From positions 1-37,501 of the forward strand of contig CAXBYW010000002.1 in NCBI GenBank assembly GCA_963980225.1: 37,501 nt of DNA, read 5' to 3'. Origin of the DNA: an uncultured bacterium. GTDB lineage: Bacteria; Patescibacteriota; Microgenomatia; UBA1400; MFAQ01. The notes under the pieces were generated by a model. It was not told where the DNA came from, did no database searches, and saw nothing but the letters and a program-made list of their open reading frames with translations. The position numbers were made by a program, and so were the translations under genes. Below are positions 1-20,466 of the stretch, in pieces (position 1 is the stretch's first letter; each line of letters opens with the position of its first letter).

Positions 1-2344
1 CTGTAATGGCTCCAACTACGTCTAGGGCTACAGTTGGATTAGTGGTGCCGATGCCTACACTACCGTCTGCTTCTATTACAAACCTGTCTCCGCCTACCCC
101 AGAAGAAGTATTAACTTCAAAAGCGTTAGCGGTGGCTCCTGAAGCTAGAGTAATTTTTTGACCTACTACGGCGGTTGAACCTAATCCTAAGTGGAGTAAG
201 GCTGTGGGAACGGTGGTGCCGATTCCGATAAGGCCGGATGAGTCGAAGATAGCTGAGTCGGTTAAGGAGTCAGAAGCACTCCACTTAGGTATAAATGTAG
301 GAGTACCAGCTCCACCGAGAGCGCCAGATGCACAACTACCCCAGGTAGGAGCGCTGCCGGCATTGGATTTTAGACATTCACCTGAAGAGCCGACTGCGGT
401 TAGTTCTAGAGAGTCTGCGTCTGAGTAGGCGATTGCTCCGGCAGCTGCGGTAATGTTTTTGTTGGTGCCTCCGTTAGCTAGGGGTAGAACTCCGGTAACA
501 TCTGCAGTAAGACTAATAGTATTGCCGCCAGATAGAATGCCAGAAGCTGATTTGACGAAACCGTCAGATAATCCACTAAAAGTAATTGTGCCTGAAGAGG
601 TGATTCCGGTGGCTGCGGCTATAGCGCCTGAGCTATTTACCTGGAATTGGCTAGTGGAACCGACTGATAGGAGAGAGGTTGGATTGGTTGTGCCGACACC
701 AAGACTTCCAGCGATGTATGTTTCACCATCCTGTTCTACTGTGAATCTATCTGTTTCAGAAGAACCAGAGGAGAGAGAAAGGAGGTCACCGGTGGCTGTA
801 TCGTTGCCTACATAGCCTGAAATTAGGTCGCCCGAGGTTAGATTGGCGTTAGTTACTCTTATGGTGTCTCCAGTAGTGGTGCCGCCAATGGCTAGTATCT
901 GTCCAGTTCCATCTGGTTGTAGAGTGATGTTGCCATCTGAGCTGACGGCGGTTGCTAGGGTAAGAGCTTGACCTTGTATCTTGAAGGTGCCAGCGGTGGA
1001 GTCTATTGTAGGGGAGGTAGCACCGATACTAATGTTGCCGGAGTTATCTATATACGGAATGCTGTTAGCAGTAGTACCGGCAGGATACCCCTGTAGGGTT
1101 TCTGTATTTAGTGCGTAAGCTACTGTGGCGATCTGCTGTCTTGGATCTAAGGTCTCGGCGCCAACGGTGACTTCCAGCCAAACGGCGGTGTTTTCTGAGA
1201 AAACTGTAGCGGCAATCTCTGATCCACAAGCCCCATCGCCTATGAGGACATTAAAGATACCGTCTTGGTCGGGAGAGACGGAACAGGTGCTGGAGGAGTA
1301 GAGTTCTGAGCCTACTGTGGCGTCATCAAACAACTTAAAGACGACATTGACTGAAGTGGTAATGGGGTTGTCTGATGAGTCGGTGAGTCTACCCTGGAAG
1401 CTTAACTGTCTAGTAGGAGCTGTAGGGCTGGTAGGATAGGCCTGACTCTTAGGAGCTTGTTTAATGATCTGGTTATATCCAAAGAGACCTAAGGCGGTAG
1501 TGAAGAGGACTAGAAGGGCTAGGTGAAGGTAAGGAGTAAAGGCCCATGAGTGATAGGTTTGGTAGAGGTTTTTTGGTGTTATGTCTTTCTTTCTTGTCAC
1601 TCTTGTCATCCAAGATAGAGGTTTTAGAGGCTTAATAGTACGAGGAGTGAAGAAAGGGTCTTTTTCAATTAGGTTGGTGGCGAGAGCAAATTGAGTGAAT
1701 TTTTTAATGGAAGAAAGACGACGATTGATGACTGATTGACCAACTTGAGATAGTTTGAGATAGTTTGAGTAAGTCTTGAGATTCAGGGGTGAAAGCTTGA
1801 AAAGGTTGGTGTTTCCGTCTGTTTTACCTAAAGAGTTGCTATTTGTTTGGTTTGAGGTGTCTTTTGTTGGATATGAGCCTTTTGTTAAATACTTAGCAGA
1901 CCAAGCTAAGTAGTGATTGATATCTGAAGCGTAGTTTTTGACGGTTGAGTGGGAAAGTTTTTGAGATTCTAGGTAGGAACGGAAGTTTTTGATGAGGTTC
2001 TCGTTTGGTTTTGAGAGGCTGGTTGTTCGTGGTGCTTCCTTCTTGCCAGGTATGTCGATGGAGAGGGAAAGATTGTGCTTGATGAATAGAAAGGTAGTGA
2101 AACGGCGAATTGAGGCTAAGTGGCGGTTGTAGGATGAAGTGGGAAGAGATTGTTTGATGTGGGCGAGGTAGAGGTGGAGTTTGGCATTGTTGAAGTCGTC
2201 GAAGTTTTCCAGTGAAGTGAGGAGCTTACGCACGTCTGATACGTAGTTTTTGACTGTAACTGCCGAGAGCGGCCTGCCCTTTGGACCTTTAAGGTCCTGA
2301 AGGAAGAGCTTGAATTGGTTTAGTAATTCCCGGGCAGGAGGCAT
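1..2344 (-). CDS. Large membrane-anchored surface fibre protein, N-terminal 781 codons only (ORF leaves the window at the left edge): two tandem phage-integrase-N-terminal SAM-like (core-binding type) domains, one TM helix, then Gly/Thr/Ser-rich tail-fibre-like repeats
   Basis: Own translation from ATG 2344..2342 stays open to position 2. It is absent from the track because no stop lies in the window. Starts MPPARELLNQFKLFLQDLKG. Two copies of the pattern S-x-(S/V)-T-V-K-N-Y-x-S-D ... N-R-x-L-(A/S)-S-I-(R/K)-(R/K)-F. Hydrophobic helix WAFTPYLHLALLVLFTTALGLFGY at about nt 1480-1550. Three G-(I/V)-G-T-T-x-P-T-x-x-L motifs further on. Confidence 0.8.
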   Translation of the reverse strand, partial: MPPARELLNQFKLFLQDLKGPKGRPLSAVTVKNYVSDVRKLLTSLENFDDFNNAKLHLYLAHIKQSLPTSSYNRHLASIRRFTTFLFIKHNLSLSIDIPGKKEAPRTTSLSKPNENLIKNFRSYLESQKLSHSTVKNYASDINHYLAWSAKYLTKGSYPTKDTSNQTNSNSLGKTDGNTNLFKLSPLNLKTYSNYLKLSQVGQSVINRRLSSIKKFTQFALATNLIEKDPFFTPRTIKPLKPLSWMTRVTRKKDITPKNLYQTYHSWAFTPYLHLALLVLFTTALGLFGYNQIIKQAPKSQAYPTSPTAPTRQLSFQGRLTDSSDNPITTSVNVVFKLFDDATVGSELYSSSTCSVSPDQDGIFNVLIGDGACGSEIAATVFSENTAVWLEVTVGAETLDPRQQIATVAYALNTETLQGYPAGTTANSIPYIDNSGNISIGATSPTIDSTAGTFKIQGQALTLATAVSSDGNITLQPDGTGQILAIGGTTTGDTIRVTNANLTSGDLISGYVGNDTATGDLLSLSSGSSETDRFTVEQDGETYIAGSLGVGTTNPTSLLSVGSTSQFQVNSSGAIAAATGITSSGTITFSGLSDGFVKSASGILSGGNTISLTADVTGVLPLANGGTNKNITAAAGAIAYSDADSLELTAVGSSGECLKSNAGSAPTWGSCASGALGGAGTPTFIPKWSASDSLTDSAIFDSSGLIGIGTTVPTALLHLGLGSTAVVGQKITLASGATANAFEVNTSSGVGGDRFVIEADGSVGIGTTNPTVALDVVGAIT

Positions 2345-2473: not shown

Positions 2474-2938
2474 GGATTGTTAATTAATTGTTGATAAGCG
2501 TGGTTTAGGTTTAAATTAGACCTTTTTATACGCTCTTATACTACTATAATAATAAGGGAGTTCGCTGTCAAGAGGCTAATGCAGGTTGCTTGCGGAGATA
2601 GTTTTTTAGTCTATCTAGGTACGGAATAAGAAAATCTTAAAGTTTAATTACCGATAATCTTTGCGGTATATGTTTATTTATTGCGGTAATAAAGGCTGTT
2701 AATGGCTGTTTACGCTGCGGAAATAGCTGTCTTTTCACACTGTTGTACACAATATGACAAATGATACATAAAGAGGTACTTTGAAATGGTATAGAGTGAT
2801 TTGATATCTTGCGGAAATTGAGTGATTAACTTTGATTTAAATGCTTTGATTACATCGCTTTTTATATTTACAACCTTTTAATCATTCTTTAAAAGAACGT
2901 GTGTTGCATAAAGTTAGATGTTTAGAGGGTTCGAAGAC

Positions 2939-4414
2939 CTATACTTGCTTGCCTTTTGATTGAATATACTCGGTGTAGAGAAGGTCTAGACCACCGATGA
3001 GAAGGATGAAAGCGGGGAAGTTGATGGTGAATGTAAGGGAAATAATAGCAGTGAACATAGAAAAGGCTAAAGCCAGTGACCTGGTATTAAGGGAGATGTT
3101 TCGGAAGCCTTCTAGAAGGGTTCTGGAGTCTTTTAGCTTTAGAATAATGGGGTTGGGGACGTTGTTTGTGCCTAAGATGATGGAGAAAGGTTCATATCCG
3201 GGAAAGATGACTTTTAGGAAAGCTGGTTGGTTGGGTAGATAGAATGTGTTTTGTAGATCGCTTAAGTTAGAGTAGATTAGTTTTTGGTTGTTTGGGTCAT
3301 AAAGAAGTATGGTGGTGAAAGGGAGACCGGTCTGGTTTGGCTTGGTTTTTAAGAACGGCCAGAAGAGAATAAGGAGAAGATTGGGGATGAGTTTTAAGCG
3401 AATACTGGCGCCAAAGGCAGTCATGGTGATGTGTAATAGGAGGCCAAACAGGCTTAAATTAAGCCATCTCTGGGTAGTGGTTTGTTTTTGTTTTGGAGTA
3501 GGGATTGGTTCTGGTAGTTTGTGTGGAGGAGCTGGTGGTGGTTCTTTGAGTTCTATTATTTCTTGAGGGATCTCTGTGGGTTTTGAAGTAGGAGAAATTA
3601 TTGGAGAGAGTGATGGGGTAGTTGTGGGGGTTGGTGTAGGCAGGAAAGGGAGAGATACTAGGGGGGTAGGGGTATATGTAATAGTGAACTCTGGGAAGAT
3701 GTTGCTATTACCGGCGGCGTCTGTAGCTGAGAGGAAAGCAGAGTAGGTAATGTTAGGTACTAGGTTGTAAAAGCGGTGTTTCCATTCACCATCTGGATCG
3801 TTTATGGTGATCGTCATGTTTTGGCAGGAAGGTGTTCCAGTTGGACAGACAAGGGAGAGTTTGAAGTTACTTAGAGCCTCTACCTTGCCCGACAAGAGGG
3901 GATTTTTGGTGGTGACCGTTAGATGGCGGTATTGGTAGGCGGGGATGGTGTAAGGGTCGTTTGAGGCCCAGTACATTGCTGTTTTGTCTACGGCCTGGAG
4001 GATGATGATGGGGATGGTTGCGTCTACATAGAAAGTATGGGTTTCGGAAGTGGCTGATGTATCACCGGTGCTGTAGGCAGTTACATACCAAGTATGCTTG
4101 CCGTCCTGGATGGGGGTGCTTAAGGTTGTATAGATGACGCCTGCTATGGCAGTAGAGTGGTCGATGTAGCTTGAGACGATGACGTCGTCTACATACAGGG
4201 TGTAGTGGCTGATATTGGCGCTGGGGGTAGATGTGTTCCAAGAAAACTGTTCGTAACGGTTGTTAGTTAGAGAGTCGTCTACTGGGGTGATCAAGACTGG
4301 AGCGGTGATGGTAGAGACAGCGATGGTGGCGGAGTTGGTGATGTCGCCCGAGCCTAAGGGGTTGGTGACGGCTAGGACGGTCGATAGTAGAAAAGCAGAC
4401 AAAATCTTGAGCAT
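2939..4414 (-). CDS. Secreted/membrane protein: signal peptide, Ig/FN3-like beta domains, Pro/Thr-rich linker, polytopic C-terminus with an embedded small beta-sandwich-like segment
   Basis: 491-aa ORF. N-terminus MLKILSAFLLSTVLAV. Pattern W..Y.LYVDD...G.H.WYV.A...G......H.F.VD..IP typical of bacterial Ig-like repeats. Linker PTPTPTTTPSLSPIISPTSKPTEIP...PPPAPPHKLPEPIPTP. Hydrophobic helices near both sides of residues 330-370 and at the C-terminus. Confidence 0.7.
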   Translation of the reverse strand: MLKILSAFLLSTVLAVTNPLGSGDITNSATIAVSTITAPVLITPVDDSLTNNRYEQFSWNTSTPSANISHYTLYVDDVIVSSYIDHSTAIAGVIYTTLSTPIQDGKHTWYVTAYSTGDTSATSETHTFYVDATIPIIILQAVDKTAMYWASNDPYTIPAYQYRHLTVTTKNPLLSGKVEALSNFKLSLVCPTGTPSCQNMTITINDPDGEWKHRFYNLVPNITYSAFLSATDAAGNSNIFPEFTITYTPTPLVSLPFLPTPTPTTTPSLSPIISPTSKPTEIPQEIIELKEPPPAPPHKLPEPIPTPKQKQTTTQRWLNLSLFGLLLHITMTAFGASIRLKLIPNLLLILFWPFLKTKPNQTGLPFTTILLYDPNNQKLIYSNLSDLQNTFYLPNQPAFLKVIFPGYEPFSIILGTNNVPNPIILKLKDSRTLLEGFRNISLNTRSLALAFSMFTAIISLTFTINFPAFILLIGGLDLLYTEYIQSKGKQV

Positions 4415-4449
4415 TAAAGAAAGTATAGCTTAAAAGATTAAAGGAAAGA

Positions 4450-5418
4450 CTAGGATTGTTTGAGTTCTTCTTTGAGTTTTTCGATTTCTGTCTCTAGTTC
4501 TTGTTCGTGGGTTTTGTTTTTCTTGGCGTAGTGTTTTACTAGGAATATAATGGCGGTGATAAAGATGATTATGTAGATGATTAAGGCTACGGGGATGACG
4601 GTGAAGTAGATTAAGGCATTTAAGCTTTTACCTTGGGTGCCATATGCGGCTTGAAGATGAGCTTGGTAGCGACCAAAGAGCCATTTAGTAGGGATGGTGT
4701 TTTTGAAGGTTCTTTCTGCTTGAGGGAAGATGTTTTGTTCTTCTAGAGGAAGGTGAGTTAGTACGTCTCCAAACATGTTGGTTATGGTGATGATACCGGT
4801 AGGTCGAATGTGAGATGGGGATTGGTTGAGGATGGTGGTGTCTATGTCTAGTGGGCCGTGTTGAGAGAATTTTGGAGTGTGAAATTTGGTAACGAGAGCC
4901 ATTTCTTCATAGTCACCTGGGATGGTGATGTATAGGAGAGTGGCGATTCGAGGAGCAATGGAAGCACCGGAGGAAGTTTGATCTACATCTTGGACTGGTT
5001 CAAGTGTCTGGCCGACAGCTTCAAAGATGATTCCAGCATAGTGGCCACCGGGGAGAGCGTCTAGGTCTGTTTTTATCTTAAACTGGATCTCTATTTTGTC
5101 GTTAGCAGGAATGGTTAGGCGATCATAAGGTAGCTTGACCCAGCTGGCGGCAGAGTAGTTACTAGAGAAGTTTTTGTCTTCTAAGAAAACCGGAGTACCT
5201 TGGTCATCTTCTATTATGAAGTCAACAACTTTAATCGTTCCAGAGATTGGAGATTCGGAGATGTTGATTAGTTTAAGAATAGCGGTGCTGGTTTCACCAG
5301 GTTTCATTTCCATCTGTTGACGAACAGGGGAGACGGTTAAGGGGACAGAGTCGACGGCCAAGACGGAAGAGGGAAGTATGAAGAAGGCAAGGATGATTAG
5401 GGGCAGGGTTTTTTTCAT
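4450..5418 (-). CDS. DUF916/DUF3324-like (WxL-interacting-protein-like) cell-surface protein with signal peptide and C-terminal TM anchor
   Basis: 322 aa. Starts MKKTLPLIILAFFILPSSVLA. Contains ...KPGETSTAILKLINISESPISG...FIIEDDQGTPVF...W...LPGGHYAGIIFEAV. Second beta domain ends ...GRYQAHLQAAYG. Single C-terminal helix VIPVALIIYIIIFITAIIFLV followed by a basic/coiled tail. Paralogous to 6920..7852. Confidence 0.7.
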   Translation of the reverse strand: MKKTLPLIILAFFILPSSVLAVDSVPLTVSPVRQQMEMKPGETSTAILKLINISESPISGTIKVVDFIIEDDQGTPVFLEDKNFSSNYSAASWVKLPYDRLTIPANDKIEIQFKIKTDLDALPGGHYAGIIFEAVGQTLEPVQDVDQTSSGASIAPRIATLLYITIPGDYEEMALVTKFHTPKFSQHGPLDIDTTILNQSPSHIRPTGIITITNMFGDVLTHLPLEEQNIFPQAERTFKNTIPTKWLFGRYQAHLQAAYGTQGKSLNALIYFTVIPVALIIYIIIFITAIIFLVKHYAKKNKTHEQELETEIEKLKEELKQS

Positions 5419-5420
5419 TT

Positions 5421-6875
5421 TTAGAAGGTGGCAGTGGCGGTGTAGCGCACGTTATTGAAGTAATAGCCAGCTGGTTGAGTGGCGGTGACGTCTATCCTGT
5501 AGCAGATATAGACTTGAGAGGTGTCTACTGGTCCAGTGTTGGTCATGACGGTCTGGGCTGTCTGACTGTCCTCGTCATCGGCAAATTGTTTGGCATTAAA
5601 AGTAGCAGCGGTGTCGTTGAATTCGAAAGAGGCTTCAGATACGGTGACTTCCTCTAGTGAGTAACCTAAGCCAGGATAGCTAGTAGGGTCTGCTCCCCAA
5701 TCCTGGAGGGTGATGTGAGTACAAGGAGTGCCGCCACAAGCAGTATCTTTTATACAGTTAGCGGCTTCACCGACATCGCCGGTACAGACACCTCCGTCTT
5801 TACCCATTTGGTCACTTTCTGTGGCTGTGACGGCGTAACCACCAGCAGCGTTGGTAGAGACTTGCAGTAGTTGGCTAGTGTTGTGGGTAGCAGCTAAGTA
5901 GGTAGGAGAGATGGTTCCCCAAGGAATGGAGTAAGCGGTGGAGTCGGGTGAGCTGGCGGTTCTAGTAACACCACAGGTGCCGGTGGTGCCGGAATCAGCG
6001 GTGACGCCGGTAACGGAGAAGGATAAGGTTTCGTCTATAGTGGCGGATACTAAAACGGCTTCTATTGGAGCAACAGATATATCAACGGTATCAATGATTT
6101 GACCGGTGGTGGCTGGGTCATCGTCGTAACTAGCAATGGTCCATTGATAGGCATCAGCGGTACCTTGAGTGTGACCAGAGGTTATTGGAGCTGGATTTAC
6201 AAGTCCAGGATCAGAGTCGATGGTTACGGTGATGGTGCCAGCGGTACAAGCGACGGTAGTGGTGGCGTCTATGGTGTGGTTGGTACCTGATCCAGCAGTG
6301 ATGTTTTCTGTAGCATTCCATGAACAACCTGTGCCACCAGAAACGGTGACGTCGGCTACTGCGATTCCATTTAGGTCCCAGCCGTTGGTGGCTGCAGTAG
6401 CGGCAGTATCTGGAGCTCCATCGTTACCTCCACTAGCTGGATCGGGAATGGAGATTCTGATGTAGCCATTGGCAGGGATGTTGTTTGCAATAGTGAAGGT
6501 GGCGGTAACGGTACCTGATTGGGTAGCGTAGATGGCATCACCATCACTGGCGCCTTCGGTTAGACCGGCTGATAGAGCGAAGTTGGTGCCGTCTATGATG
6601 TTACCGACGGTTACGTTGCCGTTAGGGCCAACGGAAATGGTGTCGTTAGGAAAAAGATGATTTGTGTTGTTGTCAGCGTTACTTGAACCCTGGATGAGGA
6701 TAGTAGTGTCTGCTGCGGTGTGAGCACCAGAAACCTTGGCGTAGTAAGAAAGTCTGGAGTTTGAAAGAGTAACGGATGCGGAGGTAAGGGCAGCAGAGGA
6801 AAGCTCGGATGGGGTAATAAGGGTAGTAATGAAGATAACCAGAAATGGCAATAGAAGCAGACCCTTTTTGCTCAT
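5421..6875 (-). CDS. Secreted beta-rich Gly/Thr/Ala-rich surface subunit, large paralogue of 7859..8614
   Basis: The track ORF starts at TTG 6911. I prefer ATG 6875, which gives MSKKGLLLLPFLVIFITTLITPSELSSA as a signal peptide. The C-terminal region shares DTAC...C-T-x-IT...W and the ending QPAGYYFNNVRYTATATF with 7859..8614. Confidence 0.75.
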   Translation of the reverse strand: MSKKGLLLLPFLVIFITTLITPSELSSAALTSASVTLSNSRLSYYAKVSGAHTAADTTILIQGSSNADNNTNHLFPNDTISVGPNGNVTVGNIIDGTNFALSAGLTEGASDGDAIYATQSGTVTATFTIANNIPANGYIRISIPDPASGGNDGAPDTAATAATNGWDLNGIAVADVTVSGGTGCSWNATENITAGSGTNHTIDATTTVACTAGTITVTIDSDPGLVNPAPITSGHTQGTADAYQWTIASYDDDPATTGQIIDTVDISVAPIEAVLVSATIDETLSFSVTGVTADSGTTGTCGVTRTASSPDSTAYSIPWGTISPTYLAATHNTSQLLQVSTNAAGGYAVTATESDQMGKDGGVCTGDVGEAANCIKDTACGGTPCTHITLQDWGADPTSYPGLGYSLEEVTVSEASFEFNDTAATFNAKQFADDEDSQTAQTVMTNTGPVDTSQVYICYRIDVTATQPAGYYFNNVRYTATATF

Positions 6876-6919
6876 AAAAGCTACTATGAAGTACTTATCA
6901 TAAGTTGTCAAACTTTTAC

Positions 6920-7852
6920 CTACTGGCTTTTTTTAAGTGTGAATTTTAGGAGAAGAATGGCGACTAGAAGACCAAGAATTGCTTTGATGGGAAGAAGAAT
7001 AAGACTGATGGAGTTTTGAGTAGAGCCGTTTTCTGAGCGGATGTTTATACTGGCTTTATATCGGCCAACTTGGGTTAGTCTGGGAGTAAATTGAAGCTGA
7101 CTACTGGATGAGGCTACTAGTTCTCTGGTAGATTGGGCGAGGACGTTAACGGGAAGGAGGGACTGAATGTGGGATACATTTGTGCCTTTGTGGATCTGAA
7201 ACAGGCCGTGGGCTTCGGTGAGATGTCTGCCCAAGTTTTCTAGTTTGGCTGAGAATCTTATGGGAGAGAAGTTGTCTAGGATGTAGGTTTGGCCTATTTT
7301 AATAAAACGGGTATCTATTGGTTTTAGATCAATGATGTTTAGGATGGTGGGTGGAGCAGCTTGGTTGGAGATGGTCAAAAGGACGTTGGCTCCAATGGAC
7401 CCGGAGACAAAGCTTTGATTTAATCCCAGTTCTCCAGTTTCTGAGACTTGCTCTGAGTTTACTAGGATGGTGGCGTAGTGATCTGCGGGTACAGTGTTTT
7501 CTGGAATTTTTATACTTAGTACTAGTTGGTCTGAGCTATTAGGTAGTAATGTAAATGGTTTGCCTAAGGCAATCTCTGAGTTTGCTAGTGAAAAATAAGA
7601 AAGCCAGGCTGGGTGAAGCTGTGTTTGTAGGCTGGGATTACCTTGGTCGTCTTCTGGTAGGAAAGGAACTATTCTGGGAGTGAGTTTGATAGGAGTTGAG
7701 TTATTGTTATATATAGTAAAGACTTGGGAAATGGACTTGCCTGGCTTGATAGTGGCCTGAAGTAGAGGGGGAGATATGCTTAAGTTTAAACCTTGAGCTA
7801 GGGCTTGTTTTGGAGTTAGAAGTAGTATGGTGAGGATGATAAGTTTTTTCAT
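6920..7852 (-). CDS. DUF916/DUF3324-like cell-surface protein with signal peptide and C-terminal TM anchor (paralogue of 4450..5418)
   Basis: 310 aa. Starts MKKLIILTILLLTPKQALA. Contains SISPPLLQATIKPGKS...IYNNNSTPI...FLPEDDQGNP...W...PADHYATILV. C-terminal helix ILGLLVAILLLKFTL followed by KKSQ. Confidence 0.7.
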   Translation of the reverse strand: MKKLIILTILLLTPKQALAQGLNLSISPPLLQATIKPGKSISQVFTIYNNNSTPIKLTPRIVPFLPEDDQGNPSLQTQLHPAWLSYFSLANSEIALGKPFTLLPNSSDQLVLSIKIPENTVPADHYATILVNSEQVSETGELGLNQSFVSGSIGANVLLTISNQAAPPTILNIIDLKPIDTRFIKIGQTYILDNFSPIRFSAKLENLGRHLTEAHGLFQIHKGTNVSHIQSLLPVNVLAQSTRELVASSSSQLQFTPRLTQVGRYKASINIRSENGSTQNSISLILLPIKAILGLLVAILLLKFTLKKSQ

Positions 7853-7858
7853 AAGAGG

Positions 7859-8614
7859 TTAAAAGCTAGGGATGGCTACGAATCTAATAGGGGTGGTGTA
7901 GTAGCCAGCAGGTTGGATGGTGGAGACGTTGGCCTTGTAGGTAACGGTGGCAGCAGAAGAAGTAGCAATACCGGTAGCGGACATAATCGTGGCTGGAGAG
8001 TCGGCGTCTTCATCGTTTGAGAAGGGCCTAAAGTAGGTTGAGTCTACGAAATCTGATGTGTCTACGTCGTCACCGGACATGTTGTAACCAAAACCGTAGT
8101 CGGTGTTACTGGCCCAGACGTTAGCATCGGTAATGGTGCAAGCAGTAGCGGCGTCGCAAGCAGTATCAGGAACATCGTTGACACCGTTTCTTAGTTCGTG
8201 ATTTTCTATCGCTTTAACTGTGTAGCCATAGGCGTTACCAGTGGATATCGTCAAAGTGTTGGTGGTGGTGGAGGGGGTTTGGGCAATTAAAGTACCTAGA
8301 TCTATAGTTAGGTCGGAGATGGTGAAGGAAAAGCGAATAAGGGAGTGGATGTACTGGAAGCCGGCTCTGACTCTATAGCCATTAGAGTCGAACTGTCCCT
8401 GGAAGGTTTGGCCTACGGTGTCTGTTAGGTTATAGGTAGCGGAAGTTTTCTTGCCACCGGTCATATTGATGTTGCTCATGTCTACTCTATAGGTATCAGA
8501 CCTTAGGTTTTCGGCTAGTAAGGTCTTTGTGAGGGTCAAAAAGAGTATAGTTGAGGCTAAAATAAGAAGTGTCTGATGGGGTTTGATAGATTTGTTGGGT
8601 TGGGGGTGATACAT
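7859..8614 (-). CDS. Secreted beta-rich surface subunit (small paralogue)
   Basis: 251 aa. Hydrophobic signal-like segment TLLILASTILFLTLTKTLLA. Repeated S/T-x-x-Y-x-V/L strands. Cys pair DTACDAATACTITDANVW. Ends QPAGYYTTPIRFVAIPSF. Confidence 0.75.
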   Translation of the reverse strand: MYHPQPNKSIKPHQTLLILASTILFLTLTKTLLAENLRSDTYRVDMSNINMTGGKKTSATYNLTDTVGQTFQGQFDSNGYRVRAGFQYIHSLIRFSFTISDLTIDLGTLIAQTPSTTTNTLTISTGNAYGYTVKAIENHELRNGVNDVPDTACDAATACTITDANVWASNTDYGFGYNMSGDDVDTSDFVDSTYFRPFSNDEDADSPATIMSATGIATSSAATVTYKANVSTIQPAGYYTTPIRFVAIPSF

Positions 8615-8653: not shown

Positions 8654-9331
8654 CTAATCTGTTTCTTTATCTATTATTATCTCTAAGCTGTTGGCGGACT
8701 TATGAAGATCCATAATATCTTTATGGGCTTTTTTAATTTTCTCTTGTAGTCTAAAAGGGAGTAGGTTTGAACTAATGACTTCACTAGTGGTTTCTAAGGC
8801 TTCTGTGAGTGAGGGCTTGGCTTTTGTAGCTATCCAGAGTAAAGTCTGGGTTTCCTCTTTTGATATAGATTCTTCGTTTTTTTGGTTTTCTGCTAGCTTT
8901 TTACCGAAGACTACGGCCAGAGGAGTAATGAGTATGAGTGAGGCTAGATTGATAGCCTGTGATGTACTAAGAGATAGTTTTGATGATACTAAAAAGACGA
9001 GGGTGAGGATAAAGCTGGTGATTAGAGCCTGAGCTGGTTCGAAGAACAAGGCTAAGGCGAAGAGGAGAATGTCTAAAAGGAAGAAGAAGGGTGAGTCAAG
9101 GCTACCAGTGGAGAAGATCATGAGTAAAATTAGGCTTAAGAAGGTTGTGATGGTAGTAAGAGATAGGTATTTGGGTTTGAGCTTAAGGAAACGGCTAAAG
9201 AAGTAAATAATGGCTAAAACACCGGCTAGTTGCAGGTTGTAGGTAGAAAGATGAGGGTTAGCGGTCCAGGAGTAAATGAGGCCAACGCTCAGGGTAATTA
9301 GGCTGGTGTGGGCTATTAAAGTTAAAGGCAT
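8654..9331 (-). CDS. Polytopic membrane protein with cytoplasmic helical C-terminal tail; possibly the first gene of the surface operon
   Basis: 225 aa, about 5-6 hydrophobic helices, then a charged tail KKLAENQKNEESISKEETQ.... Lies 39 nt upstream of 7859..8614 on the same strand. Confidence 0.55.
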   Translation of the reverse strand: MPLTLIAHTSLITLSVGLIYSWTANPHLSTYNLQLAGVLAIIYFFSRFLKLKPKYLSLTTITTFLSLILLMIFSTGSLDSPFFFLLDILLFALALFFEPAQALITSFILTLVFLVSSKLSLSTSQAINLASLILITPLAVVFGKKLAENQKNEESISKEETQTLLWIATKAKPSLTEALETTSEVISSNLLPFRLQEKIKKAHKDIMDLHKSANSLEIIIDKETD

Positions 9332-12538: not shown

Positions 12539-13111
12539 GTGCAATGGATAGAGGATCTAAAGAAAAGGTTTTCATTGAGTTTGTTTGATATAGTTCTTGT
12601 TGGTTTGATGGTACTTGGAGGGGCTTTGGTTTTATGGGGGTTGTTGGGAAATATGGGTGATAAGGGAGATGAGATAGAGTATTTAGCAGGCGATTTGAAT
12701 AGTAATGAGATGATCTGGGTAGATGTTGCTGGGGCGGTGGAGAGACCAGGGGTGTATGAATTAGGGAAAGGGTCTAGAGTTAAGGATGCTTTAGTAGCTG
12801 CCGGAGGGTTGGCTCAGGATGCCGACAGGAGTTATTTGGAAAAGGTATTAAATCTAGCGGAAATAGTAAAGGATGGAGAGAAGCTTTATATACCCCATGA
12901 GGGTAGTGAGGTGATGGGTGAATCTACCGGACTTATCAATATAAACACGGCTAACATAAGTGAGCTAGATACCCTGTGGGGGGTAGGGACTGCTAGAGCG
13001 CAAGACATTGTCGATAATAGGCCTTTTTCAAAAGTAGAAGAACTAACAACTAAGAATGTCTTACCAGAAAATGTGTATGAGCAGATTAAAAATGAAGTGA
13101 GTGTTTACTAG
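12539..13111 (+). CDS. comEA: Competence protein ComEA (TM anchor, SLBB-like domain, helix-hairpin-helix DNA-binding domain)
   Basis: Contains VDVAGAVERPGVYELGKGSRVKDALVAAGG and ININTANISELDTLWGVGTARAQDIVDNRPF. Exact start uncertain (GTG 12539 or TTG 12575). Confidence 0.85.
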   Translation: MQWIEDLKKRFSLSLFDIVLVGLMVLGGALVLWGLLGNMGDKGDEIEYLAGDLNSNEMIWVDVAGAVERPGVYELGKGSRVKDALVAAGGLAQDADRSYLEKVLNLAEIVKDGEKLYIPHEGSEVMGESTGLININTANISELDTLWGVGTARAQDIVDNRPFSKVEELTTKNVLPENVYEQIKNEVSVY

Positions 13112-14231
13112 AACTATCCTGTTACTGGTTTTTTTGGCTTTAAGGTTGGTACCGGGTTGGGTTTGGGTGTCGCAAGTTCAAAGTGGACGTGCGGTAAAAA
13201 CAAGAGGTGAGATTGTCAAAATAGAACAAAAGGGATCTAATTGTATTATTAAGGTAGGTAGGTTCTGGGTGAAAACTCAAGGCTGGTGTGTTTTTTCACG
13301 AATGGATGAAGTGGTGGTAGTTGGCAGAACAAACTATGAGGTGATAGATGTTTTGTTGGGACGAATTTGGTTGGACAATCCGCATATTAGTCTGTTTGCA
13401 AAAAATCGTGAAAAGGATCAGGTAAAAATGAATGATGATGGTGGTGTCTGGCAGATTTGGCGTGAAAAGTTAGCCCTAAACTACAAGCGGTTATTGCCGG
13501 AGCCAGAATCTTCCTTGGTTGCGGGGATTGTTTTGGGTGAAAAGAGTAGGTTACCGGAAAAGTTCCATGAAGCCTTAATAAACACAGGGACGATTCATGT
13601 TGTGGTGGCTTCTGGGTATAACGTAATGGTGGTGGGTAGTATGATCTTGGCAGGTTTGTTGTATTTGGTTGAGCGTAAGTGGGCTACGATTGGGGCGGTG
13701 GTAGGAATGTTGGCATATGGTTTGATGGCTGGAGCAGATCCGCCGGTAGTCAGGGCGGTGATTATGGGAGGGATTATTTTCGTAGGCCAAGCCTTGGGTA
13801 GGTCTAGCAAAGCCTTGTGGTCCTTGGGGTTGGCTGCTTGGGTAATGTTGATGGTAGATCCCTTGTTGGTGGAGAGCGTGAGTTTTCAGTTATCGGTAAT
13901 GGCTAGTGTGGGATTGTTCTGGCTGGAGCCTAAGTTGAGGCGGTGGTTTGATGAGAGGGAGATTGGTGGTTGGGTATTGAGGACGGAGCTTTTACCAACG
14001 CTGGCAGCTCAAGTTATGACCGTGCCGATAATTTTGTATCATTTTGGTAGAGTTAGTTGGATATCTCCGGTGGTGAACGTTTTAATCTTACCGTTTATAC
14101 CGGTAATCATGGCCTGGGGTGGAGTGATGTTGCTTTTGAGTCTTGTCTGGAGTCCGTTAGGTATGGTGGTGGGCTGGTTGGTGTATTCATTGGCTCATTT
14201 GGTGGTAGTGATGGTGAAGTTTTTTAGTTGA
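13101..14231 (+). CDS. comEC: ComEC N-terminal part: OB-like DUF4131 region plus polytopic competence channel domain
   Basis: Contains GTIHVVVASGYNV, PPVVRAVIMGG and SFQLSVMASVGL, with multiple TM helices. Overlaps the comEA end by 11 nt. Ends at TGA 14231 before any metallo-beta-lactamase domain. Confidence 0.85.
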   Translation: MFTRTILLLVFLALRLVPGWVWVSQVQSGRAVKTRGEIVKIEQKGSNCIIKVGRFWVKTQGWCVFSRMDEVVVVGRTNYEVIDVLLGRIWLDNPHISLFAKNREKDQVKMNDDGGVWQIWREKLALNYKRLLPEPESSLVAGIVLGEKSRLPEKFHEALINTGTIHVVVASGYNVMVVGSMILAGLLYLVERKWATIGAVVGMLAYGLMAGADPPVVRAVIMGGIIFVGQALGRSSKALWSLGLAAWVMLMVDPLLVESVSFQLSVMASVGLFWLEPKLRRWFDEREIGGWVLRTELLPTLAAQVMTVPIILYHFGRVSWISPVVNVLILPFIPVIMAWGGVMLLLSLVWSPLGMVVGWLVYSLAHLVVVMVKFFS

Positions 14232-14542: not shown

Positions 14543-15466
14543 GTGGTTGTTGGTAGTTTAGACTGGTATGCTTTATGTATGAAATGGTGGTCTTGGTTAG
14601 TGATGGGTGTTTTAAGTGGTTTGTTATGGATAGGAGTACAGATGCCGGATGAGAAGCTCCATGTTGTGTTTTGTGATGTAGGGCAAGGAGATGCTACCTT
14701 GATTATAAGGAAAGAGTTTCAGGTGGTGGTAGATGGTGGTCCGGGTGGGGAGAAGCTACTATCTTGTTTGGGTAGGCACTTGCCGTTTTGGGACAGAGAG
14801 ATCGATCTGGTGGTAAATACGCATCCTCAGAAAGATCACTTAGGAGGTTTGGATGAGTTGTTGGAAAGGTATAGAGTAGAAAGATTAATGATTAATGGGG
14901 TGTTTGGTGGTGGTAAGGATGCTGTTAGATTAAGAAAGTTGGTGGGTGAAGGAGAGGTTGAGATAGTATTACCTAGGGAAGGTGATGTCTTAAGAAAGGG
15001 TAGTTTACAGTTTGAGGTATTATGGCCGGAGGAAAGAGTGGGGAGTAGCTTGGCTTGGTCTGATCCTTCAAGAATGGATTTGGTAAGTGAGATAGTGTTG
15101 GGGAAGAATACGGATGTGAATATATTGAGTGTGGTGGGGTTGTTGAGATATGGTGAGTTTGAGGTGTTGCTAACTGGAGACATTGGGATTGATGAAGAAC
15201 GAGACTTACTTAAGAGGGGAAGTTTGATGGAGGTAGATGTCTTGAAAGTGGCTCATCATGGTAGTAAGTACTCGAGCAGTGATGAGTTTATTAAAAAGGT
15301 GAGTCCAAAAGTAGCAGTTATTCAAGTAGGTAAGAATAATTTTGGGCATCCTACTGAGGAGGTGTTGGATAAACTGAAGAAAATTGGTTCTCAAGTATTT
15401 AGAAATGACTTGGATGGAGATGTGGAAGTGGTGAGTGATGGTCAAGGTTTTTGGTTGGTGGATTGA
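14543..15466 (+). CDS. comEC: ComEC C-terminal part: TM helix plus metallo-beta-lactamase (nuclease) domain, encoded as a separate ORF
   Basis: Contains HVVFCDVGQGDATLI, VNTHPQKDHLGG (H-x-x-x-D-H type metal motif) and VLKVAHHGS. SD-like GTGAGGTGG at the GTG 14543 start; alternative ATG at 14579. Confidence 0.8.
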   Translation: MVVGSLDWYALCMKWWSWLVMGVLSGLLWIGVQMPDEKLHVVFCDVGQGDATLIIRKEFQVVVDGGPGGEKLLSCLGRHLPFWDREIDLVVNTHPQKDHLGGLDELLERYRVERLMINGVFGGGKDAVRLRKLVGEGEVEIVLPREGDVLRKGSLQFEVLWPEERVGSSLAWSDPSRMDLVSEIVLGKNTDVNILSVVGLLRYGEFEVLLTGDIGIDEERDLLKRGSLMEVDVLKVAHHGSKYSSSDEFIKKVSPKVAVIQVGKNNFGHPTEEVLDKLKKIGSQVFRNDLDGDVEVVSDGQGFWLVD

Positions 15467-18867: not shown

Positions 18868-20169
18868 TTATTTGAGAACTCGCTTCATTTGGATAGTTGT
18901 CCACAGTGATCCATTCCAAAATTCAAGCTTGTTGGTCTGGAAATTAAAACCAACAGTGCCGGTTTTGGGAGATTTTGGTCTACCAAGCGTGTTCCAAGCG
19001 GGAACCCTTGTAAGACTCTGGGTTGATGTGTGAGCGGAATAGGTATTAGCGTTGATGATGGAGTTTTTGCGGAGTATGGGTTTTGCAAAAGAAGGAGGTT
19101 GGATGGCAGGGGAAGGAGTAGGCTCGATTACTTGAGGAGAGGAGGAAGGAGAGAAGGAAGCTGAAGGAGAGACTGAAGCTGAAGGAGAAACTGAAGAGGA
19201 GGGGCTGGTAGTGGCTTCAGAGGGAGAGGGAGAGGCTGAGGGGGTACTGGCGGGCGTTGAAGGGGAGACGGAGGCGGAGACAGAGGAAGAAGGGCTGGTG
19301 ATAGGAGGCGTTGAAGGAGAGATGGAAGCGGAAACAGAAGAGGAGGGACTGAGACTAGCAGAAGGACTGGTGGAGGAAGAAGGAGAAAGAGAAGGTGATT
19401 CTGAAGTGGACGGTGAGAGGGAGGCTGATGGTGAGAGGGAGGCTGATGGTGAGAGACTAGGAGACTCGCTAGCAGAGGGAGAAAGAGAAGCTGATGGTGA
19501 GAGACTAGGTGAGTCGGAAGGAGAAACAGATGGTGAGACAGAAGGGCTTTCCGAAGCAGATGGAGATAGGGAAGCTGAAGGAGAGAGGCTAGGTGATTCA
19601 GATGGAGATAGGGAAGCTGAAGGAGAGAGGCTAGGTGATTCAGATGGAGATAGGGAAGGACTGGTTGACGGTGAAACTGAACTTGATGGTGACAAAGAAG
19701 GAGATTCAGATGGAGACAAGGAAGGGGAAGCTGAGGGGGATATTGATGGTGAGACTGAAGTTGAAGGTGAGAGTGATGGAGATTCTGAAGGTGAAGGACT
19801 TTCACTAGGTGAATTGGATGGCGAAATTGAAGAAGAGGGGCTTAAGCTGGGTGACTCAGATGGTGACTCTGAAGATGAAGGACTTAAAGAGGGAGATTCT
19901 GAAGGACTTTCTGAAGGCGAACTGGAAGATGAAGGACTTTCAGAGGGTGAAATTGATGACGAAGGACTTAAAGAGGGAGATTCTGAAGGACTTTCAGATG
20001 ATGATCCAAGTGGAGGAGTAGACGGTGAGACTGAAGCTGAAGGAGAAAGAGATGGTGATTCAGATGGTGACTCTGAAGGTGACTCTGAAGGTGAGGTTGA
20101 TGACGAAGGACTCAAGGAAGGTGATTCTGATGGTGATTCCGAAGGTGAAATTGATGACGAAGGACTCAA
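18868..20169 (-). CDS. Ser/Pro-rich repeat protein ([11 protein letters not shown]-type tract of about 345 residues) with a conserved roughly 45-aa C-terminal module
   Basis: The minus-strand frame is chosen over the mirror plus-strand acidic ORF because its non-repetitive C-terminus has a paralogue next door. Start unresolved: the track start is TTG, and the frame is open upstream to 20247 with no ATG. Confidence 0.7.
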
Positions 20170-20245
20170 AGAAGGTGACTCAGAAGGACTTTCAGATGGT
20201 GAGATGGAACTTGAAGGAGAAAGAGATTCTGTTTCAGTATTCCAC
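19135..20245 (-). repeat. Coding low-complexity tandem repeat tract (Ser-Pro-Ser-x periodicity)
   Basis: Visible 12-24 nt periodic units on the plus strand (gatggtga / gaaggaga variants) across about 1.1 kb. All six frames are unusually open. Confidence 0.85.
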
Positions 20246-20336
20246 GGTTATAGATATGGTAATAAGCTTTTTCTTCATTACTCCTTTGAAGATGTCGGGC
20301 AGGCATGCATTAAGTTTTGCATAATTGGTATAGAGA

Positions 20337-20466
20337 TTGCAAGTACCAATTTGAGGCTAATTTCAAGTCCTTTAAAGGTTTTTGCTGTAAAGTTTTGTTC
20401 ATTTCATCTTTAAAGCTAAACATGTTTTACTTTAAAGGTTTTTGCTGTAAAGTTTCCCCCATTTCT
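20337..20466 (+). repeat. Intergenic repeat element, copy 2: same leader TTGCAAGTAC... plus 1.5 tandem 60-bp units
   Basis: Units start at 20370 and 20430 (CTTTAAAGGTTTTTGCTGTAAAGTTT ... CTTTAAAGCTAAAC). The leader TTGCAAGTACCAATTTGAGGCTAATTTCAAGTCC matches 14281..14315. Confidence 0.85.

Follow-up and report, generated by a model that had tools for sequence, protein, structure and literature searches.

The 37,501-nucleotide stretch of DNA analysed here (contig CAXBYW010000002.1 of assembly GCA_963980225.1, from an uncultured Microgenomatia bacterium; hereafter the window) raises the question of what is built by six open reading frames (ORFs) that lie head to tail on its minus strand, from position 9331 down to 2939, and that we call M, T, C1, A, C2 and R. 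A first-pass annotation, made from the letters of the sequence, had seen in five or six of these ORFs a duplicated pair of a secreted subunit and a membrane-anchored partner, and had proposed an uncharacterised and distinct system that makes a non-covalent surface fibre or coat. Our answer is that the cluster probably encodes a Pam-type pilus, a non-covalent filament that would be held together by donor-strand exchange and built with membrane-tethered chaperones, without usher, sortase or ATPase. Judging mainly from homology, we put the probability of this at about 75%. We base the reading on the matches of T and A to Pam models, the fold of C2, the layout of A, the conserved pairing of subunit and partner genes, a set of putative anchor proteins with a VSATIGE-like strand, and the fusions found among relatives of T.

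The Pam system was defined by two filament forms of Ca. Mycosynbacter amalyticus, a member of Saccharimonadia, that were solved by cryo-electron microscopy (cryo-EM) (Troman et al., bioRxiv 2026, doi 10.64898/2026.03.03.709456). According to the same preprint, the pilins PamA, PamB and PamE have two domains, and each gives the strand that links them to the neighbouring pilin, where it enters the Ig-like C-domain, which is truncated. PamT is a tip pilin that lacks the linker, PamC and PamD are PapD/FimC-like chaperones that keep a C-terminal transmembrane (TM) helix, and PamR is a membrane-anchored terminator with an N-terminal strand, two FnIII domains and a single TM helix. The system has no usher, and conservation in the pilins is highest in the linker that is donated and in the site that binds it. 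Homologues were reported from Saccharimonadia and, via language-model searches, from Microgenomatia.

Two NCBIfam models derive from that preprint, NF058579 (CPR_pilus_PamT) and NF058581 (Pam_pilin_C), and as far as sequence comparison can settle it, we regard the matches of T and A to these models as decisive for the identity of the cluster. T matches NF058579 with an E-value of 4e-15 (55.9 bits; residues 16-251 against positions 6-241 of the 241 in the profile), and Pam_pilin_C matches T at E 3.2e-8 and A at E 3.6e-4. Since the subunits are homologous to Pam pilins, the system can be called neither uncharacterised nor distinct. The matches extend to the relatives of both proteins. An exhaustive search with a profile of the T family reached 1874 representatives (E <= 1e-3), and among 84 that were scanned from the best 150, the PamT model was matched by 39 and Pam_pilin_C by 43; Pam_pilin_C was likewise matched by 19 of 41 relatives of A.

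The C-terminal domains of T and A are also homologous to each other (31% identity, E 1e-14, BLASTP), so that the shared region noted at first pass is real, with 153 aligned residues rather than about 180. The cysteine pair described for both subunits is present in both, with the proposed C-x4-C spacing in A and a C-x5-C spacing in T. The near-identical ends that terminate in phenylalanine were likewise correctly described (both ...QPAGYY...F); the last residues are ...IPSF and ...TATF, and there is no LPXTG. A hydrophobicity scan finds signal-like segments at the N-termini of T, A and C2. T consists of a signal peptide, a conserved N-terminal region of about 55 residues and the pilin C-domain; it has no donor linker, and a linker motif of the VSATI type was not found in it. 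One representative of the T family is a giant surface protein of 2559 aa that ends in a complete T module (P0499), and another is a T with a LamG-like insertion (P0366). Such adhesin-like fusions and insertions would fit a position of T at the tip, or a role as adhesin.

A has a signal peptide up to about residue 28, an N-terminal beta-sandwich (31-268), a linker (269-283) and a pilin-like C-domain (284-482), and contains eight cysteines. In a monomer model made with AlphaFold2 (AF2; predicted local distance difference test, pLDDT, 79.8), the linker is without secondary structure and the pLDDT of residues 272-279 is below 50. Within this linker, EAVLVSATIDE ranks among the two best-conserved peptides of the A family, with E272, S277, A278 and E282 invariant. 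A conserved but unstructured peptide between two domains is what would be expected of a donor strand that becomes ordered only in the groove of a neighbouring subunit, and with the model as our guide we propose EAVLVSATIDE as the candidate donor strand of A. By model and by conservation, A has the layout of a Pam-type pilin, i.e. an N-terminal beta-sandwich, a linker among the most conserved parts of the protein, and a C-domain. A has more than 630 homologues; those listed, 120 in number, share at least 50% identity and are spread across Microgenomatia, and the conservation of A is far above that of C1 and C2. A Foldseek search with the model of A retrieved chaperone-usher pilins, with CfaB-CfaB (3f84) at the top together with SafDAA (5y9h), and with CfaE and PapG lower down; among the top 50 fold matches there was no entry named Pam. 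Sequence searches of the PDB with T, A and their family profiles gave nothing relevant and did not retrieve PamA or PamB, and the spore-coat-U and fimbrial families of Pfam matched neither T nor A.

The two partner proteins were rightly seen as paralogues (BLASTP, 32% identity over 145 aa, E 6e-12), and the hhalign alignment of their family profiles (E 2.6e-37, probability 99.9%) runs over 276 columns and takes in the two domains as well as the TM helix. Their proposed anchoring is also supported, as the hydrophobicity scan shows in each one hydrophobic segment at the N-terminus and a single membrane segment at the C-terminus; the latter lies at 284-302 in C1, and the N-terminus of C1 looks by eye like a signal peptide. 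The AF2 model of C2, built on 67 homologues, has a pLDDT of 88 and consists of two beta-sandwiches (27-134 and 157-274) followed by a TM helix from residue 277, with a disordered loop at 143-152 (pLDDT below 50) before the last strand of domain 1. The first match of this model in the PDB by Foldseek is the WxL-interacting protein (WxLIP) of Enterococcus faecium, bound to a long WxL protein (9i25_C, E 2e-12), and then follow CfaA, CsuC, YadV, CupB2, DraB, SafB, Caf1M, FimC, PapD and EcpB, with a probability of 1.0. The PapD/FimC-like fold with a C-terminal TM helix that describes the Pam chaperones is thus seen in the model of C2, and C1 is a paralogue of C2 over its full length.

By sequence the closest relative of C2 is again WxLIP. 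C2 itself scores 22.9 bits, with a cut-off of 27.3, against PF06030 (WxLIP_PGBD, formerly DUF916), and 51 of 67 members of the C2 family match this model at E <= 0.01, the best of them at E 8.6e-8. A PDB search with the single C2 sequence found nothing, and only the profile of the C2 family reached WxLIP (EfmWxLIP1, E 0.0017). The first-pass annotation had called the partners similar to DUF916 and DUF3324, and the former half of this stands on sequence and fold alike. DUF3324 is absent from the 22 Pfam families matched by the 67 C2-family members at E <= 0.01, and for this part of the claim there are only the fold matches over two domains. As to membership in the PapD family by sequence (PF00345/PF02753), PapD_N was matched by none of the 67 C2 members and weakly by one of 39 C1 members (E 0.0074), so that it is the fold alone that is shared; the C1 of the window has no Pfam match. 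The DUF916 call and the description of the Pam chaperones as PapD-like are both right, and they apply to the same fold. None of the 117 homologues of C2 is a named protein, and those with a named source come from Collier-, Roizman- or Shapirobacteria. The NCBIfam model for "choice-of-anchor T family protein" is weakly matched by 19 of the 67 C2-family members (best E 2.9e-5).

The arrangement of the cluster is conserved in related genomes. A scan of species-representative genomes with a pilin profile gave 80 loci (L001-L080), the gene order of which was determined by ORF and phmmer analysis, and we give the counts as cases found out of cases with room. T is followed by a C1-type gene in 55/56 and A by a C2-type gene in 71/76, so that the pairing proposed from this one window is conserved. 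M, which had been left as a possible sixth member, belongs to the cluster, as its homologue lies directly upstream of T, often overlapping it, in 46/58. In 24 loci the M-T-C1 module borders directly on the A-C2 module, in 29 comEA, comEC and a PaaX-like gene lie between the two, and in five (L016, L033, L037, L040 and L072) they are inverted relative to each other. That the modules can be separated and rearranged points to two dedicated subunit-chaperone modules and not to a recent duplication. What had been described as a simple duplication is better read as a tip module (T and C1) and a shaft module (A and C2), with R as anchor. Four loci (L023, L053, L056 and L069) have a second paralogue of the major pilin in the order A-C2-A, which is reminiscent of the PamA/PamB pair. 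The loci with informative titles are named as Microgenomatia lineages or as unclassified Patescibacteria. The organism of the window is from a lineage of the candidate phyla radiation (CPR), in keeping with the small-genome lineage suspected at first pass. Many of the metagenome-assembled genomes with the cluster bear the title "uncultured Gammaproteobacteria" or "Pseudomonadales", and there is one "Omnitrophota" and one "Nevskiaceae"; these look like placeholder labels or wrong ones.

M and R form the two ends of the cluster. M has about five hydrophobic segments, the core motif STG..SPFFFL.YFLLF...EP and a cytoplasmic helical tail; it gave no significant match in Pfam or the PDB, and its HisKA-like look is an impression only. 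One representative (P0484, 425 aa) joins an M-like domain (E 6e-12) and a T-like subunit (E 2e-30) in a single reading frame; this fusion could be real or an artefact of gene calling. M could be an assembly platform, a sensor or a regulator. R has by eye a signal peptide. Near its N-terminus there is then a strand, DITNSATIAV, and this is followed by Ig-like domains and a Pro/Thr stalk, while the C-terminal region is membrane-embedded. This agrees with what had been said of the fifth ORF: Pfam gives a weak match to the Ig-like Big_13, one stretch is rich in Pro/Thr, and residues 320-351 and 446-474 form hydrophobic segments. In about 50 genomes C2 is followed by the gene for a protein of about 300 aa, which carries a motif of the kind ITVSATIGEPKLTVYGYTSP; it has a signal or TM segment, and a basic tail comes after its C-terminal TM helix. 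The N-terminal VSATIGE-like strand of these proteins resembles the VSATIDE of the pilin linker, and a small hidden Markov model (HMM) of the motif matches most pilins at the linker and R at residues 24-31 (ITNSATIA), although the scores are not significant and the similarity is for this reason only suggestive. These proteins of other genomes are closer to the description of PamR than the R of the window is. From its position and architecture, we consider R a candidate for a PamR-like anchor.

What is shown above is the homology of the parts, their folds and the pairing of their genes; the filament, its interfaces and the order of assembly can be outlined from homology and anatomy, and on these grounds we think that the first reading of a non-covalent fibre, made by strand complementation without usher or sortase, was probably right. 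The subunits would be exported by Sec and put together at the cytoplasmic membrane into a thin extracellular filament. C1 would capture T by filling the open groove of its incomplete Ig-like domain, and T would come to sit at the distal tip. C2 would hold A in the same manner, and the linker EAVLVSATIDE of each incoming A would displace the chaperone strand from the C-domain of the previous subunit, which would make the fibre grow at its base. The N-domain of A may add contacts between the subunits. Growth would stop when the N-terminal strand of R enters the last A, and the fibre would then be tied to the membrane. M could act as platform or regulator.

Some results weigh against a Pam-type pilus. 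Every NCBIfam Pam score found here is far below its cut-off. The 55.9 bits of T are to be set against a cut-off of 240, which makes T a homologue and not an equivalog of PamT by the NCBI criterion, and the scores for Pam_pilin_C are 33.8 bits (T) and 20.7 bits (A) with a cut-off of 55. None of the 84 representatives scanned from the best 150 of the 1874 in the T family reaches the PamT cut-off, and within these representatives the bridge in sequence from the T family to a bona fide PamT of Saccharimonadia is not closed. C1, C2 and R matched no Pam-specific model. The fold matches of A are weak (best E 2.6e-5, TM-scores 0.17-0.25), which we ascribe to the two domains of the query. None of the 80 related loci holds a sequence relative of the window's R, not even with the threshold at E 10, and the assignment of R is therefore the least secure one; the match of R to the motif HMM is not significant either (E 0.075 in a small database). 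Furthermore, in the data at hand no cell of Microgenomatia has been seen to carry a pilus.

The nearest alternative is a static surface complex of the WxL/Csc type, in which the DUF916-like proteins would permanently hold the subunits on the cell surface as scaffolds for adhesins or enzymes, much as has been proposed for WxLIP and WxL proteins of lactobacilli and enterococci, and no filament would form. It draws on the same results that identified the partners, with WxLIP as the closest relative of C2 in both sequence and fold, and on the fact that in WxL clusters, too, one anchored partner stands beside two secreted proteins, a small and a large one. We find it rather improbable all the same. 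No WxL domain was matched by Pfam in any of the six cluster proteins, and the WxL chains of 9i25 were retrieved neither by the family profiles of T and A nor by the fold search with the model of A, so the first-pass annotation was correct that the subunits lack this domain; the two or more WxL-domain proteins of a WxL/Csc cluster are not found here. The subunits match Pam pilin models and the folds of chaperone-usher pilins instead, and the ultra-conserved linker, together with anchor proteins that have a linker-like N-terminus, is hard to explain if nothing polymerises. Still more improbable is a surface coat or a set of S-layer-associated adhesins, with the anchored proteins as stalks and not chaperones. 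A is as strongly conserved as abundant envelope proteins are, the listed homologues being at least 50% identical across the class, and the cluster adjoins the gene of a giant fibre protein, both of which would suit a coat. Neither Pfam nor NCBIfam gave a match to an S-layer, SLH or coat family, however, and the fold of the partners is that of strand-donating chaperones, while the subunits are homologous to proteins that form helical filaments in cryo-EM.

We give the least credence, hardly any in fact, to a classical chaperone-usher or sortase pilus with the missing machinery encoded outside the window, even if chaperone-usher systems have the same folds of chaperone and pilin. The first-pass annotation had seen neither a sortase nor an usher nor a type IV pilus gene in the window, and this is borne out for the window ORFs scanned with Pfam, and neither an usher nor a sortase was found with Pfam and NCBIfam in the flanks of about 9 kb of the one related locus that was scanned (L036). 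A pilus assembled by sortase would have a pilin-specific sortase and LPXTG, but no sortase was matched in the scanned window ORFs and the subunits end in phenylalanine without LPXTG. The chaperones are anchored by TM helices, unlike periplasmic chaperones. To our knowledge, CPR cells have no outer membrane that could hold an usher. A Pam-type pilus remains the reading that we prefer.

The layout of the locus is given in Table 1.

Table 1. Features of the putative pilus cluster and its neighbour in the window.
Feature	Position	Strand	Description
M	8654..9331	-	225 aa; conserved polytopic membrane protein
T	7859..8614	-	251 aa; PamT-like, putative tip subunit
C1	6920..7852	-	310 aa; membrane-anchored chaperone-like protein, partner of T
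A	5421..6875	-	484 aa; major two-domain pilin (putative)
EAVLVSATIDE, candidate donor strand of A (residues 272-282)	6030..6062	-	from conservation and AF2 model
C2	4450..5418	-	322 aa; membrane-anchored chaperone-like protein, partner of A
R	2939..4414	-	491 aa; candidate terminator/anchor, PamR analogue
Tail-fibre-like protein, neighbour outside the core	1..2344	-	start of a 2314-aa protein; the gene is cut by the window end

All the ORFs of the first-pass annotation are present on the minus strand as listed. Their spacing had been given as 2-39 nt, and this is true of M-T (39 nt), T-C1 (6 nt), A-C2 (2 nt) and C2-R (35 nt). The gap between C1 and A falls outside that range with the ATG at 6875 as start of A (44 nt), or is 8 nt with the upstream TTG at 6911; homologues support the ATG (484 aa), and the TTG would give 496 aa. 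Promoter and terminator scans were at chance level. A near-consensus sigma-70-like site, TTGACA-17-TATAGT (11/12), lies at 2543-2571 (-) in the gap of about 600 nt that precedes the giant fibre gene, and another, TTGACA-17-CATAGT, at 6883-6911 (-), just upstream of the start of A. Overall, promoter-like sites are no commoner than in shuffled sequence.

About 3 kb from M lies comEA (12539-13111, +), followed by a comEC that is split into separate "Competence" and metallo-beta-lactamase ORFs (13101-14231, +, and 14543-15466, +). Genes of the comEA/comEC type are found at most 8 kb from the pilin gene in 61 of the 80 loci, and in L036 they lie with a PaaX-like regulator between the two pilus modules. 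On the other side is the gene of the tail-fibre-like protein. On longer contigs the gene is complete and carries Pfam marks. The 2314-aa protein has domains like integrase-SAM at its N-terminus and Peptidase_S74 at its C-terminus, along with a TM helix and Gly/Thr/Ser repeats of a fibre-like kind, and its gene is followed there by that of a Gly_rich_2 protein of more than 1284 aa. The combination is odd, as a DNA-binding module of a cytoplasmic integrase type is joined to a giant surface fibre.

The composition of the window also shows an extreme asymmetry of the strands. The plus strand has 10793 G and 5013 C, a GC skew of about +0.37 that is independent of the orientation of the genes. In plus-strand genes the third codon positions have a skew of +0.63, and in minus-strand genes one of -0.66 on the coding strand. 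The skew reshapes the proteins: those from plus- and minus-strand genes differ in V (10.6 vs 4.7%), E (9.2 vs 4.0%) and T (3.8 vs 10.3%). Such a strong skew is found only in this lineage (L081-L083) and in milder form in L001; in the 79 other Microgenomatia loci its absolute value is at most 0.16. The strand bias makes long spurious antisense ORFs likely. Two overlapping ORFs on opposite strands, 18868-20169 (-, 433 aa) and 19211-20413 (+, 400 aa), gave no convincing Pfam match.

If the cluster is what we think, the Pam pilus is extended from one cultured species of Saccharimonadia to a blueprint of an operon across Microgenomatia, in which an anchor and an additional membrane protein accompany a tip module and a shaft module. 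A large part of bacterial diversity belongs to the CPR, whose members live attached to hosts, and few of their surface machines are known. The blueprint also offers specific points that can be tested, namely the candidate donor strand EAVLVSATIDE, the dedicated pairs of chaperone and subunit, and tip proteins fused to giant adhesins. The frequent placement of comEA and comEC next to the pilus genes raises the question whether the pilus contributes to the uptake of DNA. A more far-reaching idea, which we consider less likely than not, is that the Pam chaperones and WxLIP form one ancient family, that the WxL clusters are the Firmicute branch of usher-less strand complementation, and that the Microgenomatia pilus has a functional tie to the DNA-uptake channel of ComEA/ComEC. 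Strand complementation with membrane-tethered chaperones would then be a widespread way for monoderm bacteria to mount surface proteins. The link to WxLIP, if it holds, would connect a CPR pilus with surface clusters, implicated in adhesion and virulence, that lactobacilli, enterococci and Listeria possess, and would suggest a chaperone-like mechanism for the WxL clusters, which have so far been read as peptidoglycan-binding scaffolds. In the text available to us, the link between Pam-type chaperones and the Firmicute WxLIP, by sequence and fold, is made neither by the Pam preprint nor by the WxLIP paper.

Compared with the chaperone-usher pili (Pap and Fim, class 5 CFA/I, archaic Csu), the cluster has the same chaperone fold and pilin fold, a conserved aromatic C-terminal strand, probably donor-strand complementation and exchange, and a putative tip subunit without donor strand. 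It differs in that no usher was found, in that the chaperones are tethered to the membrane, and in the proposed donor strand, which here would be an internal linker between two domains and in chaperone-usher pili is an N-terminal extension. WxLIP consists of DUF916, DUF3324 and a TM helix, belongs to the WxL/Csc clusters of Lactobacillales, and has been described as a scaffold that binds peptidoglycan and host, not as a chaperone; a loop region in it is predicted to become a strand that inserts into the WxL partner (Hassan et al., Protein Sci 2023; PDB 9i1y, 9i25). C2 resembles it in its signal peptide, two Ig-like domains and C-terminal TM helix, and in the sequence of the first domain, and WxLIP is the best fold match of C2 over both domains. 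The loop 143-152 of C2 corresponds to the region of WxLIP that is predicted to form the strand, and both genes are clustered with those of a small and a large secreted protein. The differences are that the partners here are Pam-type pilins without a WxL domain, that DUF3324 was undetected by sequence, and that WxL clusters are not known to make filaments.

The differences from the Pam pilus of M. amalyticus are of another kind. There are three pilin paralogues in M. amalyticus and one major pilin here, with two in a few relatives. The strict pairing of subunit and chaperone in two separable modules has not been described for Pam, and the conserved polytopic protein M does not occur in the preprint text at hand, in which comEA/comEC, WxL and DUF916 are not mentioned either. 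The R of the window, with its Pro/Thr stalk and several hydrophobic segments in 491 aa, is unlike the two FnIII domains and single TM helix of PamR. The neighbouring genes are comEA and comEC, in contrast to the genes for ATP synthase, CorB and MFS proteins that are reported around pam in Saccharimonadia. The preprint also reports a tail-fibre-like protein as a central neighbour of pam operons, and its analysis of neighbourhoods was limited to close homologues of PamA (doi 10.64898/2026.03.03.709456). The features in common are the subunits with signal peptides for export by Sec and a putative Pam-type C-domain, a tip protein of the single-domain type, T, that aligns with PamT from end to end, a pilin of two domains, A, with a conserved linker strand, and two PapD-like chaperones, C1 and C2, with C-terminal TM helices. 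To these can be added the lack of an usher among the ORFs scanned, a putative membrane-anchored protein after the last chaperone, a tail-fibre-like neighbour and a distribution restricted to CPR bacteria. Most likely, the cluster is a divergent version, at the level of the class Microgenomatia, of the Pam pilus that is already known.

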